In this document: positions 3,772 to 25,640 of the stretch, piece after piece | Numbering within the stretch: position 1 is the stretch's first letter | How the letters are laid out: every line of letters begins with the position of its first letter | DNA from: Candidatus Saccharimonadota bacterium | Lineage (GTDB): Bacteria > Patescibacteriota > Microgenomatia > UBA1406 > GWC2-37-13 | Assembly (NCBI GenBank): GCA_016432445.1 | Contig: CP066689.1 | Span: 60,001 to 92,000, forward strand | Direction: 5' to 3' | Length of the DNA: 32,000 nucleotides | Position numbers and translations under genes: made by a program | The notes under the pieces: generated by a model | Databases searched by the model: none | The model's input: the letters and a program-made list of their open reading frames with translations, nothing else | What the model was told of the DNA's origin: nothing

Positions 3772-5526
3772 TTATTCTATCAAACTTTTTTCCTCCTCAG
3801 AAGCAATGACTTTAAATCCAACGTGAGACTGACCGGCAAAAAATAATCCTTCTCCAACCCCAGCCGATAACAAGAAATGCTTTTCTCCGCCTGTCAGGTA
3901 AAATGTTTCGGTGATCTTATCAACCGCCGCAGTTGACTGCTTTAGAATAATCTGCAAACTGGAATTAGTGATAATAGCTTTTCCTTCCTGCGTTGACAGA
4001 AAATCTTCAACGTCTTGAGTAATTGTAGTTAACCCCAGCAAATATTTGCGGGCGCGCTTGGCAAAATTAAAAAGATAATTGCCTGAGTCTTTATGTTTGA
4101 TTAAATACCACGCCTCATCAACAATTAAAACTCTTTTTTTCTTTTCACGCCTTACCTTATTCCAGATGTAATCTAAAACAACGTACATGGCCACCGGCCT
4201 TAAGTTTTCCTCCAAATCCCTAATACCAAAAACCGTAAATGGATTTTTAATATCAAAGTTTGATTGCTGATTAAAAATGCCTGAAGCTGAACCTTTAACG
4301 AATTTCTCCAGCCGGTCGCCCAGTTCTTTTGATTCTGGTGTTTCCATCCCCAATAATACTTTATAAAGATCCTCTAGAAGCGGCGGCTGCGTTTTAAAAG
4401 TCTCAGGATCCTGAGTGATGCCTTTTTGGCGGTAGGTCAAGACCAATGCCCGATCAAGAAGAGCATCCTGGGCCGGGACCAAATCACCCATAATTACCCT
4501 CATTAATGAATGCAGATTTAAGATTTTATTCTGCAGTTCATCAGGCTCAGGATCAGCGGTTGCTAAATCAAAAGGATTAATTTTATACTGAGATGCCCCT
4601 GAAAATTCTACAAACTCTCCACCCATTGAACCTGTTAATTTTTTATACTCATTCTCAGGGTCAATGATCATCACATCAGTACCCATCATCAGCAGTCTTG
4701 ACGACTCAAGTTTGACTAAAAAGCTTTTCCCTCCTCCTGATTTTCCTAAAATAACTGAGTTGGCATTCTCAAGAGTAAACCGGTCAAAGATAATAAGTGA
4801 TCCGTCATGCTGATTTAATCCATACATAATTCCTTCGTTTTTTGTAAGAGATGCCGTTGAAAAAGGAAAAGTCGTAGCTAAAGATGTTGTGTCCATATTG
4901 CGCCACACTGAAAGTTTGTCATAAAACATAGGTAAGGTTGATTTAAATCCTTCTTCCATCTGCAAAGTTGCTTGTTTAGCAATAATAAGAAGTGAGGCTA
5001 AACTTGAGTCAATCTGTTTGCTTAACTGATTTAACTCATCAAGACTATCAGCCGGAATTGTGATATAAAGTCCAAACTGAAAAAATCTTTCCGCTCCTTT
5101 GGCAAGTTCAGCCTGCAAGGCTAAAGCATCATCAAGGGCTACCTGTACTGTCGGGTCAACTACCTTCCCCGCCTTCATATCAGTTTCAATAGTCGCTTCC
5201 ATCTCGGCAATCTTGCGTTTCAAATCTTCAAGTACTGTTTTCGATTCGGTTGGATAAATATACATTGAGATATAAAGAGGATGATCAAAAGTAATAAGAG
5301 AATAAAGCCAGTTGGCTGAAACATAACGGGGGTAGCCTACGACATACAAAGTTTTGTAATATTTATCATCAATTTTAAGGTAGTTGAAATCAACTTCAAT
5401 AAAAGAAGGCGCAATAATATCTTTGATACTGACTGATCCTTTAGCCACTACCTCGGCCACGCTTTGAGATCCGCCCGCAACAGCCGAACCATTTGATTTT
5501 GTTTTTGGTTTAAATAAACCTAGCAT
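3772..5526 (-). CDS. VirB4/TrbE-like type IV secretion ATPase
   Basis: Walker A GKSGGGKSF and Walker B VLIVDEAW. N-terminal region is typical of the VirB4 family (YYKTLYVVGYPRYVSANWL). The track start at 5553 is a TTG inside the repeat element; the ATG at 5526 (MLGLFKPK) is preferred. Confidence 0.8.
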   Translation of the reverse strand: MLGLFKPKTKSNGSAVAGGSQSVAEVVAKGSVSIKDIIAPSFIEVDFNYLKIDDKYYKTLYVVGYPRYVSANWLYSLITFDHPLYISMYIYPTESKTVLEDLKRKIAEMEATIETDMKAGKVVDPTVQVALDDALALQAELAKGAERFFQFGLYITIPADSLDELNQLSKQIDSSLASLLIIAKQATLQMEEGFKSTLPMFYDKLSVWRNMDTTSLATTFPFSTASLTKNEGIMYGLNQHDGSLIIFDRFTLENANSVILGKSGGGKSFLVKLESSRLLMMGTDVMIIDPENEYKKLTGSMGGEFVEFSGASQYKINPFDLATADPEPDELQNKILNLHSLMRVIMGDLVPAQDALLDRALVLTYRQKGITQDPETFKTQPPLLEDLYKVLLGMETPESKELGDRLEKFVKGSASGIFNQQSNFDIKNPFTVFGIRDLEENLRPVAMYVVLDYIWNKVRREKKKRVLIVDEAWYLIKHKDSGNYLFNFAKRARKYLLGLTTITQDVEDFLSTQEGKAIITNSSLQIILKQSTAAVDKITETFYLTGGEKHFLLSAGVGEGLFFAGQSHVGFKVIASEEEKSLIE

Positions 5527-5530
5527 AATT

Positions 5531-5654
5531 AAATTTAAAAATCCAAATGTCAAAGCTTAAATGTCAAACCTGCCTGCCGGCAGGCAGGTCAAATCCAAAA
5601 TCTTAAATCCTAGAAAATGTTTGACATTTGAAATTTGGATTTTGACATTTAGAA
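5531..5654. repeat. heptamer-repeat hairpin element with central 22-nt GC palindrome
   Basis: AAATCCA/AAATGTC words, then acctgcctgccggcaggcaggt (5568-5589), then inverted TTTGACA/TTTGGAT words. Its last 22 nt (5633-5654) are identical to 13899-13920. Confidence 0.8.
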
Positions 5655-6313: not shown

Positions 6314-6319
6314 CTTTTT

Positions 6320-6386
6320 ATGATTTATGATTCACGATTTAAGATTCATGAATATTCTTGAATCCTGAATCATGAATCTTGAATCA
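6320..6386. repeat. heptamer-repeat hairpin element (GATTCA / TGAATC word family)
   Basis: Reads tgattta|tgattca|cgattta|agattca|tgaatat|tcttgaa|tcctgaa|tcatgaa|tcttgaa|tca, a perfect 7-nt phase. The two halves are reverse-complementary. Confidence 0.85.
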
Positions 6387-6394
6387 ATTTTGTT

Positions 6395-7297
6395 TTATAA
6401 CATTTCTTTCGAATAAAACTCAAAAGGATTGGGATTGTTTTCCTCAACCTTCAATTTCATTGTATCAAAAAAGTAACCGCCTTTTGGATCTTTTAGTTCA
6501 AATAAATACTCGCCTTCAGGCAGATTGTTATAGGTTGCAAAAACTCCGTGAGGATTAGTTTTTAATAATCTTAAAGTCTCGTTACTACCACCTTTTACAT
6601 AAATTAAAATACCGGGAAGCGGAATCTTTTTATTGTTTTTAACCAAACCAATAAAGAATGGCTGTTTGGGTTGACTCGAAGATACAGCCGGTACTGAAAG
6701 CGGCGTAGCATTAATAGTAGAGGCCGCCTGAGCCACAACAGGATTATCAGTTCTGGGTTGTGAGTTGTGAGTTGTGGGTTGTGAATTTTGTGTTGACTCA
6801 GAACCCACAACCCTTGACCCAGAACTATTTTGTAATTGATTCGTCGCTGTCTGCAATAATGTCTGCACTTGCTGTTTGTTATCGTTTGATGCTTGCTGGG
6901 GAGTTGAGCTAACAAGATATGCTGCTAGTTTTTCTTTGGACTCAATATGCGATATTATTTTATGAGGGTCTGAAACAAAATATAGATTTTGTAGAAAATA
7001 AAGAGGCTGATTATGTTTGTGATAAACATATTGAGTTGGAGATGTAAGTCTTTTTATAAGATTTTTAATCCAAACATCAAGAGGCCGATCATTTATCGGC
7101 ACCAAAGCTAAAGCTGCACCAAACAGTACAAAAATTACTCCTAAAATGATATTTAAATAAGGTATCGGAAAAATCATCCAGATAATAAAACCCACAGGAC
7201 CAAATACCAAAAAATACAAAAACTGCTTTAAGGTCATAAACCCAATTAGCTTAAACTCAAATGTAGTTATCTGACGAGGAACTGGATGCTGCTCCAT
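6395..7297 (-). CDS. PrgI-family-like membrane protein with C-terminal carboxypeptidase-regulatory-like beta domain
   Basis: The N-terminus MEQHPVPRQITTFEFKLIGFMTLKQF plus two TM helices matches my memory of PrgI-family proteins encoded next to VirB4. The C-terminus (GILIYVKGGSNETLRLLKTNPHGVFATYNNLPEGEYLFEL) looks like a CarboxypepD_reg fold. The start is moved to the ATG at 7297. Confidence 0.6.
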   Translation of the reverse strand: MEQHPVPRQITTFEFKLIGFMTLKQFLYFLVFGPVGFIIWMIFPIPYLNIILGVIFVLFGAALALVPINDRPLDVWIKNLIKRLTSPTQYVYHKHNQPLYFLQNLYFVSDPHKIISHIESKEKLAAYLVSSTPQQASNDNKQQVQTLLQTATNQLQNSSGSRVVGSESTQNSQPTTHNSQPRTDNPVVAQAASTINATPLSVPAVSSSQPKQPFFIGLVKNNKKIPLPGILIYVKGGSNETLRLLKTNPHGVFATYNNLPEGEYLFELKDPKGGYFFDTMKLKVEENNPNPFEFYSKEML

Positions 7298-7328
7298 GTA
7301 TTCAGTATATAATATGTAGCACAATATT

Positions 7329-7412
7329 TGATTTATGATTCAAGATTCAAGATTCACGAATAAAAATTAATAAACAAATAATGAAATTTCATGAATCATG
7401 AATCGTGAATCA
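7329..7412. repeat. heptamer-repeat hairpin element (GATTCA / TGAATC word family)
   Basis: Left arm tgattta|tgattca|agattca|agattca|cgaataa; right arm tcatgaa|tcatgaa|tcgtgaa|tca. The right-arm 24-mer at 7389-7412 recurs exactly at 17041-17064. Confidence 0.85.
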
Positions 7413-9752: not shown

Positions 9753-9913
9753 CTAATAAAACTTTTTAAACAGGATAAGAATAGTTATTTTTTGGCTTCC
9801 TGTCAATCTATATTAAGAATATCTTATTGTAACAATCTATATCAAATTTAGGCTTTGGAACAATATAATTAAAGAAGTGATGAGTTCTGGGTTCCGAGTT
9901 GTTGGTTTTGAGT

Positions 9914-13753: not shown

Positions 13754-13840
13754 AAAAATTTATGAAATTATAATGTCACCATTATGCCTAAACATCTCAA
13801 AAAATTCAATAGATTATAAGCCACAAAGTTGAGTAAATAA

Positions 13841-13920
13841 ATTCAAATATCAAATAAATATTTGGATTTTAGATTTTGGATTTGATTTGAAATTTGACAT
13901 TTGGATTTTGACATTTAGAA
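13841..13920. repeat. heptamer-repeat hairpin element (TTGGATT/TGACATT word family)
   Basis: attcaaatatcaaataaata is followed by tttggattttagattttggatttgatttgaaatttgacatttggattttgacatttagaa. The terminal 22-mer is identical to 5633-5654 and overlaps the stop codon of the UbiA-family gene. Confidence 0.75.
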
Positions 13921-15358: not shown

Positions 15359-15967
15359 ATGAATATTGATTTTAAGAACGTTTCTAAACATTATGCTCCT
15401 CGTACTCATGAAAAAATGCAGGAAGTTTTAATGAATCCTCAAGGAGTTGGACCAGAAATTCATTATTACATGATAAGAGGTGGTAAAAATCAAAAAAACA
15501 TTACTATTTGGGAACCGGGAACAATAAGTGGCGAATATATTAAAACTTACGGACACTATCATTTAGGACAGCTTGATGAAACTTACTGGATCACTTTTGG
15601 ACAAGGAATCGCCGTATTGCAAAAATTAGCTCTTGATGAAAAAGGGGAGATGATCCCTGATGTTGTTGAAGAGTTTAAAGTCATAAAGGTTAAACCTGGA
15701 GATAGTATTTATATGCCACCAGGTTATGGACATCTCTTTGCTAATGTTGGAGAAACATATTTTGTGACAGCTGATAACAGCCCTGTTAATTTCGGGGATG
15801 TTGATCCTTCAGGAATGCCCGGTCATGCCGATTATGAACCTGTAAAAAAAATGCAAGGCTTTGCCTATTACGTGGTTGAACATGAAGGCAAACCAGCTCT
15901 TAAAAAAAATCTAAAATATAAAGAAATTAAAAAGGAAGATCTTGGAGGTTTGTCTGTCATTGTCTGA
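15359..15967 (+). CDS. cupin-type (archaeal-type) glucose-6-phosphate isomerase
   Basis: PGTISGEYIKTYGHYH....DETYW and PGDSIYMPPGYGHLFANVGE align by eye with Pyrococcus cPGI (PGKVGKEFFFTKGHFH...AEVY; PGTVVYVPPYWAHRTVNIGD). Confidence 0.7.
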   Translation: MNIDFKNVSKHYAPRTHEKMQEVLMNPQGVGPEIHYYMIRGGKNQKNITIWEPGTISGEYIKTYGHYHLGQLDETYWITFGQGIAVLQKLALDEKGEMIPDVVEEFKVIKVKPGDSIYMPPGYGHLFANVGETYFVTADNSPVNFGDVDPSGMPGHADYEPVKKMQGFAYYVVEHEGKPALKKNLKYKEIKKEDLGGLSVIV

Positions 15968-15994
15968 GATCTTCGATATTCGATTTTCGATATT
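15968..15994. repeat. heptamer-repeat arm (TTCGAT words), left inverted repeat of the four-helix-bundle cassette
   Basis: cttcgat|attcgat|tttcgat|attagat, starting right after the PGI stop codon. The inverted partner is at 16421-16452. Confidence 0.8.
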
Positions 15995-16361
15995 AGATTT
16001 TAGTTTTAAGATATCTAATAAGTCCACTAATCATCATGCCGATTTTATTAGCTTCATTAAGTAATTCTATAGAAATATGCTCATCAATGTATTTTAAATC
16101 TTTCGCAAGAATTATCTGATACTTTGTTTCTGCTAAAGAACTTTTAGACATGTATAAAAATCGCACAAAATCTTTTTTACTACCTCGTTCGTTTCCTTCT
16201 ACTATATTTGTAGAAATGGAAGCTGACGATCTTCGGATTTGATCCACTAATGAATATTTTTCATTCATTGGAAAATATTTTGTTATTTCATATATTTTTA
16301 ATACTAATTTATGTGAACGATTCCAAACTTCCAATTTTTCAAACTGATTATTAAAATTCAT
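15993..16361 (-). CDS. four-helix-bundle protein (23S rRNA intervening-sequence protein family, TIGR02436-like)
   Basis: 122 aa. LEVWNRSHKLVLKIYEITKYFP..EKYSLVDQIRRSSASISTNIVEG..R.SKKDFVRFLYMSKSSLAETKYQIILAKDLKYI matches the family consensus over its full length. Confidence 0.9.
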   Translation of the reverse strand: MNFNNQFEKLEVWNRSHKLVLKIYEITKYFPMNEKYSLVDQIRRSSASISTNIVEGNERGSKKDFVRFLYMSKSSLAETKYQIILAKDLKYIDEHISIELLNEANKIGMMISGLIRYLKTKI

Positions 16362-16420
16362 AAAATGATCATCTCATATCTAAAAATAATATCAGTCGCT
16401 TATCGTCAACAATATTAAGT

Positions 16421-16452
16421 AAATCGAACGTCGAATATCGAAAATCGATGAT
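16421..16452. repeat. heptamer-repeat arm (ATCGA words), right inverted repeat of the four-helix-bundle cassette
   Basis: aaatcga|acgtcga|atatcga|aaatcga|tgatc. This is the reverse-complement word set of 15968-15994. Confidence 0.8.
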
Positions 16453-16462
16453 CAGGAGCTTT

Positions 16463-17761
16463 TTAGAAGGATCTACTTACTTCTTTTCCTAACTTCACCG
16501 CATAATTTGTTCCCCGGTCATAAGGATAGGTCATGTCGAGATTGGCAATGAAAAAGTTTTTGACGGGAGTTTCAAATGTTGGTTTATTTGCTACAAACTC
16601 TTTATCATAAATAGGTTGTGCCCAAGGAGCTTTGAAAAAAAAGTTCTGAGTTATGCGTTCTGAGTATTGCGGATTTATTTGTTTTAAATAAGGAAGATAA
16701 AATTTAACGGCTTCTTCTCCATCCATTTTTAATCTTTTATCATCTCCATCTAAATAATTGGCCACGTAAAGGATATGTTTATCGTTATAATATTTTTTAT
16801 TCATAAAATTAGTATGTTGAACTAAACCCATGATGGGAATATTTTTATCACAGACATTAAGCCAGTAGGTCTTTTCAAGCAATGGCTTTTCTGACTGCAA
16901 AATAAGAGTTGTTGCATGAAGATATTTTATTTTTTTTAAGTTTGATAAATAATTTTCCGGAAAAATATTTTCTGCTAATTTAACTAAAACCGGCGTCGGC
17001 AAGGTAGAAATTACCGCATCATATTTTTCCTCATGAATCATGAATCGTGAATCATGAATCAATATTTCCCCTATTTGACATCCTTTCTTAATCACTACTC
17101 CCAAATCTTGATTAACCTTTTCCAAATAATTAATAAATGTTTGAAAACCACCTTTAATATAACCTAAATCCTTGGTTCTTTTTTTAATTCTGGCCCAAAA
17201 AAAAGAGGTTAGAATAATTCCCGCGTATTTACCGAACTTTTTCCGAAAGAGTTCCTGCCACAGTACATTCCAAGCTTCATCCCCCATGGTTTTCTTTAGA
17301 AACTCCTCAGCCGTTTGCTTCTCATAAAGATTAAAAAAAGGAGAAAATTTAAGAAAAGCCAAAATAAAAGCCGCTCTTATCTTTGATGGCCAAGAGAGAA
17401 GAGGGAACTTCAAAAAATCTTGCGGAGTATCTAAGGGAAATATGCGGGAATTAGATTTTCGATATTCGATTTTCGAAGATCGACTATCGAACATCGGATA
17501 AAGAGAGGCTGTCTCGGGTGACTCGAAAACGACATCATTAAACCCAACCTCTTTGGCAAAATTCAAGATATCCATATCATTAGAGAAGAGGTGATGGTAA
17601 GTCCTTTCCAAATACCAACTCCATTTTTCATCTTTAAACCCTGAAGCTAATCCTCCTAAGATTTCTTCTTTTTCAAAAAGCGTTACCTTGTGACCTTTTT
17701 TAGCAAGATAGTAAGCGGCCGTTAATCCCGTAAACCCTCCACCCAAAATTGCAATTTGCAT
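16463..17761 (-). CDS. NAD(P)/FAD-dependent oxidoreductase (amine-oxidase / protoporphyrinogen-oxidase-like fold)
   Basis: N-terminal dinucleotide-binding motif IAILGGGFTGLTAAYYLAKKGHKVTLFEKEEILGGLA. Contains two in-frame heptamer-repeat segments (see findings). Confidence 0.75.
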   Translation of the reverse strand: MQIAILGGGFTGLTAAYYLAKKGHKVTLFEKEEILGGLASGFKDEKWSWYLERTYHHLFSNDMDILNFAKEVGFNDVVFESPETASLYPMFDSRSSKIEYRKSNSRIFPLDTPQDFLKFPLLSWPSKIRAAFILAFLKFSPFFNLYEKQTAEEFLKKTMGDEAWNVLWQELFRKKFGKYAGIILTSFFWARIKKRTKDLGYIKGGFQTFINYLEKVNQDLGVVIKKGCQIGEILIHDSRFMIHEEKYDAVISTLPTPVLVKLAENIFPENYLSNLKKIKYLHATTLILQSEKPLLEKTYWLNVCDKNIPIMGLVQHTNFMNKKYYNDKHILYVANYLDGDDKRLKMDGEEAVKFYLPYLKQINPQYSERITQNFFFKAPWAQPIYDKEFVANKPTFETPVKNFFIANLDMTYPYDRGTNYAVKLGKEVSRSF

Positions 17762-18109: not shown

Positions 18110-18131
18110 ACCTGCCTGCCGGCAGGCAGGT
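18110..18131. terminator. 22-nt perfect GC palindrome, candidate bidirectional terminator hairpin
   Basis: acctgcctgccggcaggcaggt lies between convergent gene ends (17787..18080 plus strand, 18157..19149 minus strand). There is no clear U-tract. Confidence 0.4.
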
Positions 18132-24042: not shown

Positions 24043-24062
24043 CCTGCCTGCCGGCAGGCAGG
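24043..24062. terminator. 20-nt perfect GC palindrome flanked by CTACGAA heptamers, candidate terminator of the nrdJ-pduO unit
   Basis: cctgcctgccggcaggcagg lies 9 nt after the adenosyltransferase stop. Flanking words are ctacgaa | ccacgaa|ctaccaa|ctacgaa. Confidence 0.45.
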
Positions 24063-24116: not shown

Positions 24117-24138
24117 AAGAAAGCATTTTTAAAAATTA

Positions 24139-24308
24139 GGCTTGGTTTAACCACAATAAGGTTAATTGGGAATACGGTGTGAATCCGTAACTGTGCCGCA
24201 GCGGTAAAAGTTAGTCGCGAGTCGTTAGTCATGAGTCATTAAAAATGACTCTCAAGACTAAAGACTCAAGTCTCAAGACTAAACTTGAGTCCGAAGACCG
24301 ACCAAGCT
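24139..24308 (+). promoter_or_regulatory. cobalamin (B12) riboswitch
   Basis: The core GGUUAAUUGGGAAUACGGUGUGAAUCCGUAACUGUGCCGCAGCGGUAAAAG parallels E. coli btuB GUUAAUAGGGAAUCCAGUGCGAAUCUGGAGCUGACGCGCAGCGGUAAGG. The 3' B12-box GAGUCCGAAGACCGACC fits rAGYCMGgAgaCCkGCc. The P1 halves are ggcttggt / accaagc. Confidence 0.85.
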
Positions 24309-24332
24309 CTCGACCCCGAGCAGGGATTATTT

Positions 24333-25640
24333 ATGTTATCGGCCGAAATCTGTAAGCCTTCATCATCTTTTCTTCCTAGCAGAAATGCTACAGAAAGAAC
24401 AAATACAATCGACGTTCCATTAAAAGAAGAGTCGATTTTTAATTATTACTCAATCACCAACGAAGCCAAATTCCTCAAAGAAAACCCTCAATTGCCTCAC
24501 GAGCAAAAAGAATATTATCTTAAAGAAAACGTTTTAAGATTCTTGGGGGAGTTTGCCGGAAAAGTTCCTTACACTAAAATAACCTACATTCTAAGAGATG
24601 ATGGATTATATTACGGAGATCTAAAAGCCATGGACAATTATCGCCAGACTGCTATAATGCCTGAAGCCACCGATCGGGAAAAAGCCGAAGGGGAAGGATT
24701 TGAAAAAGTTGAGGAAGGATTACTTCAACCGGCAAACACCGCTTATTGGATTTCTCCTCCTAAGATTGCCAATTATGGATTTGTTTTCTACTTCACTAAA
24801 GAACTCCAATACGATAAAAAATTAAAAGGTTACAAGGTTACTGAATATATTTTAAGATATCCTGAAAAATTGGAAGATGTTTCAAAAAGTAACCAAATTG
24901 CTTATGGAATAGAAAGTAATGGAAATAACAAACATTACCGGAAAAACGCCAATGATTTTATCAGAGACCCTTTTTTTGATTTATCCAATCCAAATTCAAA
25001 TCTTAAAAAGATATTAAATCTTGTTGATGTTGATGATGAAAAGATATTTCAATCCCAACAGTTTGAAAAACAGGTTGAAGAAAAACTTTCAGGATTAATT
25101 GATCAATACACCAAAACTATTATGATACTATCAAAATATGAACCTTATGAACCAGAATATAATCAAATGTGTAACCACGCTGAAAGTTTACTAACTACTA
25201 TTTACAACAGTGCACGCGTCATTAAGCATATTGTTGAAGAACCTGAAAATCACAATACTGAGAGTTCTGTTTTTGAAAGAGCCAGCAATAAAGAACTTAT
25301 GGCTTACTTTTCACAAAAAAAAGCCACCGTAACTGGAGGAGGCAGTTGTCCTGTTACAAACAAAAGAAATCAACCTGCCTATTTATCATCTTTTAACGTT
25401 TATGCCCTAATGAATACCGGAAATCCCATTGAAAGTTTTATTCATGATCTTGATGAACTTTTTTCAGATAATAAATTTTTAGAATCTGATAGCGAAAACG
25501 AACACTATGAAGATTATGAATGTCCTCATTGCCACGAAACATTGTCAGGTGAAAAGAAAAATGATCCAAGTTCCTGGAGAAAAACATGCGACCACTGTGG
25601 TGAAGATGTCAGATGTAATAAAGAAACGTTAGCTGCCTAA
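24333..25640 (+). CDS. hypothetical protein with C-terminal CxxC...CxxC zinc ribbon, riboswitch-controlled
   Basis: Long ORF with no TM segment or signal peptide. The C-terminus is YECPHCHETLSGEKKNDPSSWRKTCDHCGEDVRC. The track start (TTG 24285) lies inside the riboswitch, so the in-frame ATG at 24333 is preferred. No family recognised. Confidence 0.6.
   Translation: MLSAEICKPSSSFLPSRNATERTNTIDVPLKEESIFNYYSITNEAKFLKENPQLPHEQKEYYLKENVLRFLGEFAGKVPYTKITYILRDDGLYYGDLKAMDNYRQTAIMPEATDREKAEGEGFEKVEEGLLQPANTAYWISPPKIANYGFVFYFTKELQYDKKLKGYKVTEYILRYPEKLEDVSKSNQIAYGIESNGNNKHYRKNANDFIRDPFFDLSNPNSNLKKILNLVDVDDEKIFQSQQFEKQVEEKLSGLIDQYTKTIMILSKYEPYEPEYNQMCNHAESLLTTIYNSARVIKHIVEEPENHNTESSVFERASNKELMAYFSQKKATVTGGGSCPVTNKRNQPAYLSSFNVYALMNTGNPIESFIHDLDELFSDNKFLESDSENEHYEDYECPHCHETLSGEKKNDPSSWRKTCDHCGEDVRCNKETLAA

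Follow-up and report, generated by a model that had tools for sequence, protein, structure and literature searches.

Proteins of the PF05635/TIGR02436 family are small four-helix bundles (4HB) named after the intervening sequences (IVSs) of 23S rRNA, and the locus described here raises the question of why a gene of this family should lie between two protein-coding genes, enclosed by inverted arrays of heptamers. The locus is part of a stretch of 32,000 nucleotides (positions 60,001 to 92,000 of contig CP066689.1; hereafter the window) from a genome of the candidate phyla radiation (CPR) with 35% G+C. We consider it likely that the region is a complete member of a widespread, polar IVS-type cassette, which here occupies the 3' region of a protein-gene transcript.

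To our knowledge, rRNA IVSs and the heptameric microsatellites of bacteria (the short tandemly repeated repetitive (STRR) sequences of cyanobacteria and the GGGAATC repeats of Xanthomonas) have each been without explanation for decades, and we know of no function of the PF05635 family, of which several crystal structures exist, outside diversity-generating retroelements (DGRs). These three puzzles can be joined because 4HB genes are usually packaged between heptamer arrays, because the package moves as a unit, and because cargo-less hairpins with the same words occur at the same kinds of site. The 4HB family, rRNA IVSs and heptameric microsatellites would thus become one testable system. For annotators, the same results are a warning that heptamer hairpins lying in frame in genes, or in riboswitch stems, are insertions of this class of element.

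A 4HB gene between inverted heptamer arrays

Four heptamers (CTTCGAT, ATTCGAT, TTTCGAT and ATTAGAT) can be read at 15971-15998 of the window and four inverse ones (AAATCGA, ACGTCGA, ATATCGA and AAATCGA) at 16421-16448, and Tandem Repeats Finder reports period-7 arrays at 15968-15998 (4.4 copies) and 16421-16448 (4.0 copies). In a repeat search the same arrays form a pair of inverted arms of 33 nt (Table 1), 82% complementary and 420 nt apart, with an inverted-repeat score of 18 (z = 5.5 versus shuffled flanks). The predicted fold of the sense-strand RNA closes with the arm-arm stem in both the minimum-free-energy and the centroid structure. Two convergent genes, encoding a glucose-6-phosphate isomerase (GPI)-type cupin and a flavin amine oxidase, leave between their stop codons a gap that the cassette fills, and an Rfam scan of the window detected no rRNA. 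The original prediction, made from the letters of the window, had described a 122-aa 4HB ORF bracketed by inverse sets of heptamer words and wedged between the stop codons of convergent genes, and both parts of this description are borne out by the words, the arrays, the inverted repeat and the gene boundaries.

The encoded protein matches PF05635 over model positions 1-106 of 106 with 135.9 bits (cut-off 33.8, E 7e-40) and TIGR02436 with 131 bits (cut-off 24, E 2e-38), so that its predicted assignment to the family of 23S rRNA intervening-sequence proteins holds over the full length. All 14 residues that are invariant across 27 homologues are present, including a polar motif in helix 2, Q..R...S...N..EG (Q41, R44, S48, N52, E55 and G56), which has already been noted in the literature for this family. 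The closest solved structure is that of the pentameric protein XCC0516 (PDB 2GSC, E 5e-16), with further homology to 2RLD, and the window protein is therefore predicted from its sequence to be probably pentameric as well. It is basic, with an isoelectric point of 9.5 and a net charge of +6 (family median isoelectric point 9.2). In relatives the 4HB gene has dN/dS values of 0.04-0.19, and the protein is under strong purifying selection. With 19,639 clusters (at 50% identity) that match the window protein, the family is a large one.

Several proteins of 350-420 residues carry the 4HB domain at their N-terminus (L008 3980-5164; P0242, P0243, P0254 and P0388; these handles, like those below, denote loci or proteins of our collection). 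Such proteins may have arisen by fusion, when loss of the stop codon in the 3' arm let a cassette ORF read through into the host gene downstream.

Heptamer arms are the usual packaging of 4HB genes

A set of 80 loci encoding related 4HB proteins (one genome per species) was fetched with a 10-sequence alignment; represented in it are Omnitrophota, Bacteroidota, Planctomycetota, Gamma- and Deltaproteobacteria, Clostridia, Patescibacteria, Nitrospira, Deferribacter and one nanoarchaeon. Most of the loci are contigs of metagenome-assembled genomes (MAGs), and tandem repeats leave their alignments ambiguous. The arm score was defined as the best inverted repeat between the 150-nt flanks of an ORF, with a heuristic threshold of at least 14. 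Most 4HB genes proved to be enclosed by arms of about 31 nt made of tandem heptamers, e.g. TAAGCTN, AGGATTA, GGGTTAT or TCAGNNN. The threshold is reached by 65% of 68 4HB genes versus 3.5% of 259 control ORFs from the same loci (Mann-Whitney p 1.6e-24). These 259 are true controls, from which 11 apparent control ORFs had been removed as additional 4HB paralogues, eight of them with arms of their own.

When the loci, their paralogues, one relative and four cyanobacterial plasmid genes are combined into a set of 89 cassettes, 59 have inverted arms and nine have only direct heptamer arrays, which lie on both sides; in 74 a run of period 7 is present in one flank or in both. Flanking inverted repeats at other 4HB genes of related genomes were an expectation of the original prediction, which these 59 of 89 cassettes, set against the control rate, sustain. 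The period is a property of the flanks: the lag-7 autocorrelation is 0.44 in both flanks versus 0.24 within the ORF, and lag 7 scores highest in 46 of 73 upstream and 46 of 73 downstream flanks versus two of 73 ORF interiors. In control flanks lag 7 is the best lag in 20-24% (11% expected). All four cyanobacterial plasmid genes are flanked by heptamer arrays. Conserved 16S and 23S motifs are absent from all 80 loci, and a location outside rRNA is therefore the rule for this branch of the 4HB family. No 4HB relatives were detected in viral contigs with the patterns used.

In a literature search conducted without most subscription journals, no published link between 4HB genes and heptamer repeats was found beyond a remark on Coxiella (see below), and the general association of 4HB genes with heptamer arms appears not to have been described before.

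A cyanobacterial plasmid (Pseudanabaena galeata pPg_01, L107) carries a 4HB gene at 1492-1851 between cas6 and cas4. Its flanks are very long direct arrays, AAAGCTA x17 upstream and AAAGCCA x10 downstream, which are not inverted relative to each other.

Geometry and polarity of the cassettes

In the relatives, the median distance from the end of the 5' arm to the start codon is 10.5 nt, which makes the 59-nt leader of the window cassette longer than those of most relatives. The 3' arm begins at a median of +0.5 nt after the stop codon, and often the ORF's final codons are themselves the first heptamers of this arm. On the sense strand G exceeds C in the 5' arm of 48 cassettes versus six with the opposite bias (p 3e-9), and the two arms are therefore not interchangeable. 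Cassettes sit in strings of co-directional genes: of 69 upstream neighbours, 65 point the same way as the 4HB gene, and the median gaps are about 50 nt long.

Two loci (L026 and L032) hold four cassettes each within 8 kb, all in the same orientation, alternating with ordinary or housekeeping operon genes and each with its own word. Between 5' arm and ATG, two other loci, from a single MAG (L016 and L022), share a small and conserved hairpin, CCCTCC…GGAGGG, in which an anti-Shine-Dalgarno-like sequence pairs with the ribosome-binding site of the 4HB gene; this hairpin may be a translational control element within the cassette.

The cassette as a conserved unit with occupied and empty sites

Six cassettes from MAGs assigned to Schekmanbacteria, Clostridia, Planctomycetia and Omnitrophota are 69-82% identical in DNA sequence over the ORF and about 35-40 nt of each arm, and show no similarity across 2.5-kb flanks. 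The ORF with its arms is thus a conserved unit that moves among unrelated genomic contexts. Paralogues within one genome are divergent (35-58% identity); the two arms of a paralogue match in heptamer word, and each paralogue has a word of its own. The one close pair, L032b and L032c (89% identity), has a common word. Orthologous cassettes vary in the number of heptamer copies.

Loci orthologous to the window were located through GPI homologues (80-83% identity) in the syntenic order recX-recA-UbiA-isomerase-GPI. At the site between the GPI and amine oxidase genes, L098 has the two stop codons 16 nt apart, with a palindromic run (TAAGATC TTAGATC TAAGATC AAAGATC) and no 4HB gene, and L096 has an unrelated gene of 439 codons. 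In L103 a 4HB cassette is located in the UbiA-recA spacer, with TTACGGA/TTACGTA x3 directly before the ATG and TCCGTAA x3 forming the last codons and stop codon. Cassettes are therefore gained and lost at orthologous sites, which hold either a cassette or a plain heptamer hairpin; the comparison of empty and occupied sites suggested with the original prediction could in this way be made between relatives. No target-site duplication was definable at the window/L098 junctions.

The UbiA-recA spacer (13754-13914 in the window) is occupied by a different word in each species, by no array, or by a full cassette. The window has an array plus a small hairpin (13861-13916), L096 a heptamer hairpin, L101 the array TATAAAG x4 and L098 none, in addition to the cassette of L103 mentioned above. 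This indicates a very fast turnover of heptamer elements at a fixed site.

A transposon with terminal inverted repeats, or a miniature element derived from one, was considered as a description of the cassette and ruled out, since the arms of paralogues differ in word and a target-site duplication is not definable.

Cargo-less counterparts of the cassette

The window contains 15 period-7 runs, with 140 windows of at least 16/21 lag-7 matches versus 0.02 in shuffled sequence, most of them hairpins in short intergenic gaps just after stop codons. The predicted position of these plain hairpins, the same as that of the cassette, was thus correct as to the gaps after stop codons; as to orientation it was not, since most lie between co-directional rather than convergent genes.

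One counterpart of the cassette lies 1.1 kb away. The 19-mer TTCGATATTCGATTTTCGA occurs exactly in the 3' cassette arm (15972-15990) and again at 17458-17476 (chance expectation 0), where it is half of a twin hairpin, in frame inside the amine oxidase gene. Four matches to the 19-mer are present in the window, the fourth being the other cassette arm with two mismatches. The region 17450-17496 corresponds to an insertion of about 15 residues (MFDSRSSKIEYRKSN region) that six amine oxidase homologues lack, and it has the TCGAT word of the cassette. The relatives that a metagenome scan for this amine oxidase yielded were all non-syntenic and only about 40% identical. Two cargo-less hairpins of L023 match the neighbouring cassette in words and loop ends, and in 10 of 29 loci, versus about two expected, the words of the arms reappear at another place within the 8-kb locus. 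The word families of the window hairpins gave no matches in other loci. Plain heptamer hairpins are the cargo-less counterparts of the cassette and share ancestry with its arms, in agreement with the earlier suggestion that one kind of element exists with or without an ORF; the exact 19-mer twin and the alternation of cassette and hairpin at orthologous sites both speak for it.

L023 also contains a composite element at 3886-4390, consisting of a full hairpin (3886-3985), a 4HB ORF (3992-4345) and a second loop end with right arm (4347-4390). Its left arm could pair with either right arm, so that the ORF would be included in or excluded from the loop.

Features and surroundings of the window cassette

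The coordinates of the cassette, its neighbours and the twin hairpin are collected in Table 1. Within 3 kb of the cassette are the genes for the GPI-type cupin, a mannose-6-phosphate isomerase-like cupin, UbiA, the amine oxidase, a 97-aa ORF and an AI-2E transporter. No transposase- or integrase-like product is encoded by the cassette, whose Pfam matches are PF05635 and PF22296 only. A sigma-70-like promoter was found neither in the leader nor between the amine oxidase gene and the 4HB start.

An intrinsic terminator was ruled out as an identity for the element, as the region 15800-16700 has no terminator-like site, i.e. a short GC-rich hairpin followed by a T run.

Table 1. Coordinates of the cassette, neighbouring genes and the cargo-less hairpin in the window
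Feature	Position	Strand	Remarks
Whole cassette, 486 bp	15968..16453	-	5' arm, 59-nt leader, 4HB ORF and 3' arm, in ORF sense
5' (upstream) arm	16421..16453	-	4-5 heptamers, core TCGA; sense GATCATCGATTTTCGATATTCGACGTTCGATTT
Leader, 59 nt, from 5' arm to ATG	16362..16420	-	
4HB gene, 122 aa, intact	15993..16361	-	PF05635 / TIGR02436
3' (downstream) arm	15968..16000	-	Heptamers begin in the ORF's final codons and stop codon; sense ...AAAATCTAATATCGAAAATCGAATATCGAAGATC
Convergent neighbour, GPI-type cupin	15359..15967	+	Stop codon adjoins 3' arm
Upstream co-directional host gene, flavin amine oxidase family	16463..17761	-	
Cargo-less twin hairpin	17458..17491	.	Plus copy 17458-17476 (19/19 identical) adjoins minus copy 17473-17491

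Comparison with known systems

The 23S rRNA IVSs of Leptospira and Coxiella share with the window cassette the protein family and the inverted repeats around the ORF, which form a stem of about 28-33 bp. One such case is the IVS in helix 45 of Coxiella burnetii 23S rRNA, with a 28-bp stem that is cleaved by RNase III in vitro and in which the in-vivo ends were mapped (Warrier et al. 2016). In its 5' arm three copies of GACAGAT and one GACAGAA immediately precede the start codon of S23p, and strains differ in the number of copies (Warrier et al. 2016). Tandem heptamers in the arm on the start-codon side, variable copy number and a sporadic, horizontally transferred distribution are features of both. 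The original prediction of an IVS-like cassette outside rRNA agrees with this common design and with the frequency of inverted arms in the 89-cassette set. The window cassette differs in its location between protein genes rather than in rRNA helix 9, 25 or 45, and in the distance of 59 nt between arm and ATG, which adjoin in Coxiella. Its protein is intact and, in relatives, under purifying selection, whereas the Coxiella protein is decaying; and RNase III cleavage, seen in vitro for Coxiella, is a prediction for the window cassette. ORFs of PF05635 have also been reported in 16S and 23S insertions of CPR bacteria and inside cas operons.

Intergenic heptamer repeats without an assigned function have been described in Xanthomonas (GGGAATC, 70 convergent pairs) and Nostoc (GGGGAYT) (Rehm et al. 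2015). A supplementary table of the same study lists GGGAATC x4 located 6 nt after accB (listed as bccP, XCC0517) and overlapping the start codon of XCC0516 (Rehm et al. 2015). The product of XCC0516 is the pentameric 4HB protein whose crystal structure gives the window protein its best match in the PDB. Like the elements studied here, these repeats (STRR, GGGAATC and GGGGAYT) are tandem and mostly intergenic near the upstream stop codon, frequently form convergent pairs capable of hairpin formation and differ in length between relatives. The studies of these repeats, however, treat them as microsatellites forming G-quadruplexes, with no link to 4HB proteins, and the window words are AT-rich and unable to form such a structure.

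A further parallel is offered by repetitive extragenic palindromes (REPs), their hairpin-forming doublets (REPINs) and the REP-associated tyrosine transposases (RAYTs). In both systems a single-copy gene is bracketed by an inverted short repeat that is also dispersed as cargo-less intergenic hairpins, and different paralogues pair with different repeat families. The 4HB protein, however, is a helical bundle of about 120 residues without the HUH/Y1 (IS200-like) transposase fold, and its arms are tandem heptamer arrays instead of a fixed palindrome of about 20-35 nt. A Pedobacter locus (L077 7503-8078, minus strand) was picked up by the bracket scan as an unplanned positive control: it has a RAYT-like gene with inverted REP hairpins, in a genome that also has heptamer-flanked 4HB genes.

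The accessory protein Avd of DGRs, a pentamer that binds the reverse transcriptase and the element RNA, is a homologous basic four-helix bundle; unlike Avd genes, the window gene scores under the Avd cut-offs and has no reverse transcriptase nearby. Rickettsia palindromic elements (RPEs) are hairpin-forming insertions of 100-150 bp that occur in frame in protein genes and in structured RNAs without being destructive, and have a fixed consensus and no associated gene. The window hairpins at 17458-17491, 6749-6826 and in the riboswitch stem at 24212-24284 may be compared with RPEs, but they are heptamer arrays of many word families.

Possible mode of action and alternative explanations

We propose that the cassette would lack a promoter of its own and be transcribed by read-through from the amine oxidase gene, and that the arms would pair in the read-through RNA to a stem of about 30 bp. 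By analogy with the IVS stems of Coxiella and Leptospira, we infer that RNase III may cut this stem; the cut would set the 4HB message free and split it off from the host message. The basic, Avd-like and probably pentameric 4HB protein would (judging from the Avd homology) bind nucleic acid, most plausibly the heptamer arrays, and could thereby help to maintain or propagate cassettes and hairpins. Such a tie of the protein to the spread or processing of the hairpins, also put forward in the original prediction, is hypothesised here on circumstantial grounds, since it rests on the co-divergence of protein and word, on purifying selection, on the basic nature of the protein and on the XCC0516 case. 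For the six homologous cassettes, the predicted consensus fold closes with an arm stem of 27 bp.

Several observations weigh against an IVS-type cassette acting through its transcript. Among the mismatches of the arm stems, G:U is not in excess over A:C (56 vs 52), and in the six homologous cassettes no convincing covariation is seen at the variable heptamer positions, the core pairs being invariant; neither test gives a signal specific to a sense-strand RNA stem, and a role at the DNA level is equally compatible with these data. About 10% of the 89 cassettes have direct arrays and about a quarter fall below the arm-score threshold, so that the stem is not obligatory. At 94%, co-orientation with the upstream gene exceeds the locus background of 85% by a modest margin only (p 0.04), and is therefore weak evidence on its own. 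Paralogous cassettes of one genome differ in their words, unlike classical terminal inverted repeats, and the Coxiella authors concluded that the S23p protein is probably not expressed (Warrier et al. 2016).

These points give most room to an explanation in which the arrays are double- or single-stranded DNA sites, either protein-binding iterons or recombination ends comparable to the REP/RAYT case, and in which the RNA stem is incidental. Besides the missing wobble bias and covariation, it would account for heptamers built of a conserved 4-5-nt core and variable positions, as expected of protein-binding repeats, for the direct-repeat variants, for the differing copy number of orthologues and for the same bracket geometry around the RAYT gene of L077. 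It has more difficulty with the published RNase III cleavage of the homologous Coxiella stem in RNA, with the polarity of the arms relative to transcription, which is most simply read as function on one strand, and with a protein devoid of any known DNA-cleaving or DNA-joining fold or motif. As an explanation in which the RNA has no part we regard it as rather unlikely, although a REP/RAYT-like function at the DNA level fits most of the data and is compatible with RNA processing. We hold it less probable still that the hairpins are host structures, serving for example at transcript ends or in processing, or made by slippage, in whose loops a selfish 4HB ORF lands or survives, so that the arms belong to the site. 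Each paralogous cassette within a genome indeed has its own word, empty orthologous sites already bear heptamer hairpins with different words, the full hairpin of L023 precedes the ORF and a second copy of its right arm follows it, and plain hairpins far outnumber cassettes in the window. Arms that merely belonged to the site should not, however, share homology over 35-40 nt on both sides in unrelated contexts, contribute the last codons and stop codon of the ORF or keep a fixed polarity relative to it (48 vs 6), and similar proteins have similar words (L032b and L032c; the TAAGCTN group, which shares both).

Two further possibilities have very little probability. An ordinary 4HB gene might have come to lie between two independent heptamer microsatellites in a repeat-rich genome, as heptamer runs occupy many intergenic gaps of the window and some excess of lag 7 is also seen beside control ORFs of other genomes; but the arms share a word and are complementary, and the arrangement recurs across phyla at about 19x the control rate. 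The arm score, this recurrence and the cassette-wide homology in unrelated contexts effectively refute such a coincidence. A DGR remnant that retained its Avd protein and lost the reverse transcriptase is suggested by matches to bAvd (PF22296, 36 bits) and to the Avd equivalog NF033474 (41.6 bits), which are weak and lie under the curated cut-offs of 40 and 80, respectively. No reverse transcriptase is annotated among the neighbours within 3 kb, and general repeat scans gave no template/variable repeat pair, although none was specifically sought.

The IVS-type cassette can be extended to a more speculative picture, in which 4HB proteins and heptamer hairpins form one genome-wide, RAYT/REPIN-like system. 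Each 4HB paralogue, probably as a pentamer reading about five heptamers, would read its own word and drive or maintain cassettes and hairpins in spacers, coding sequences, riboswitch stems and rRNA helices; rRNA IVSs would be a special case, and the heptamer excess of the STRR and GGGAATC kind would be its footprint. We put this forward tentatively, as a possibility with the odds against it.

Other heptamer elements in the window

Arrays other than the twin hairpin were observed in two coding sequences. A heptamer hairpin with GAGTTGT / ACAACCC words at 6749-6826 lies in frame in the ORF 6395..7324 (minus strand) and encodes a low-complexity linker (…SSGSRVVGSESTQNSQPTTHNSQPRT…) that joins the N- and C-terminal parts of the 309-aa product; a one-armed array of its word is located at 9881-9913. 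The amine oxidase gene contains a coding array at 17031-17061 (TCATGAA x4.4, …IHDSRFMIHEE…) that aligns poorly with homologues and belongs to the word family of the intergenic hairpins at 6317-6386 and 7337-7412.

A cobalamin riboswitch (RF00174, 64 bits) was identified at 24126-24320 on the plus strand, upstream of the gene 24285..25640. Its variable peripheral stem is a heptamer hairpin with arrays at 24212-24241 and 24248-24284 (GAGTCNT / AAGACTC words), which is thus lodged in a helix of a structured RNA, much like an IVS in rRNA.

Finally, a GC-rich palindrome of 20 nt, CCTGCCTGCCGGCAGGCAGG, is present in three exact copies in the AT-rich window (5569-5588, 18111-18130 and 24043-24062), two of them nested in or beside heptamer arrays. 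It also occurs at 331 and 7383 in a Schekmanbacteria MAG (L024), with a near-copy in L091, and may represent a separate family of dispersed mini-palindromes that targets heptamer hairpins.

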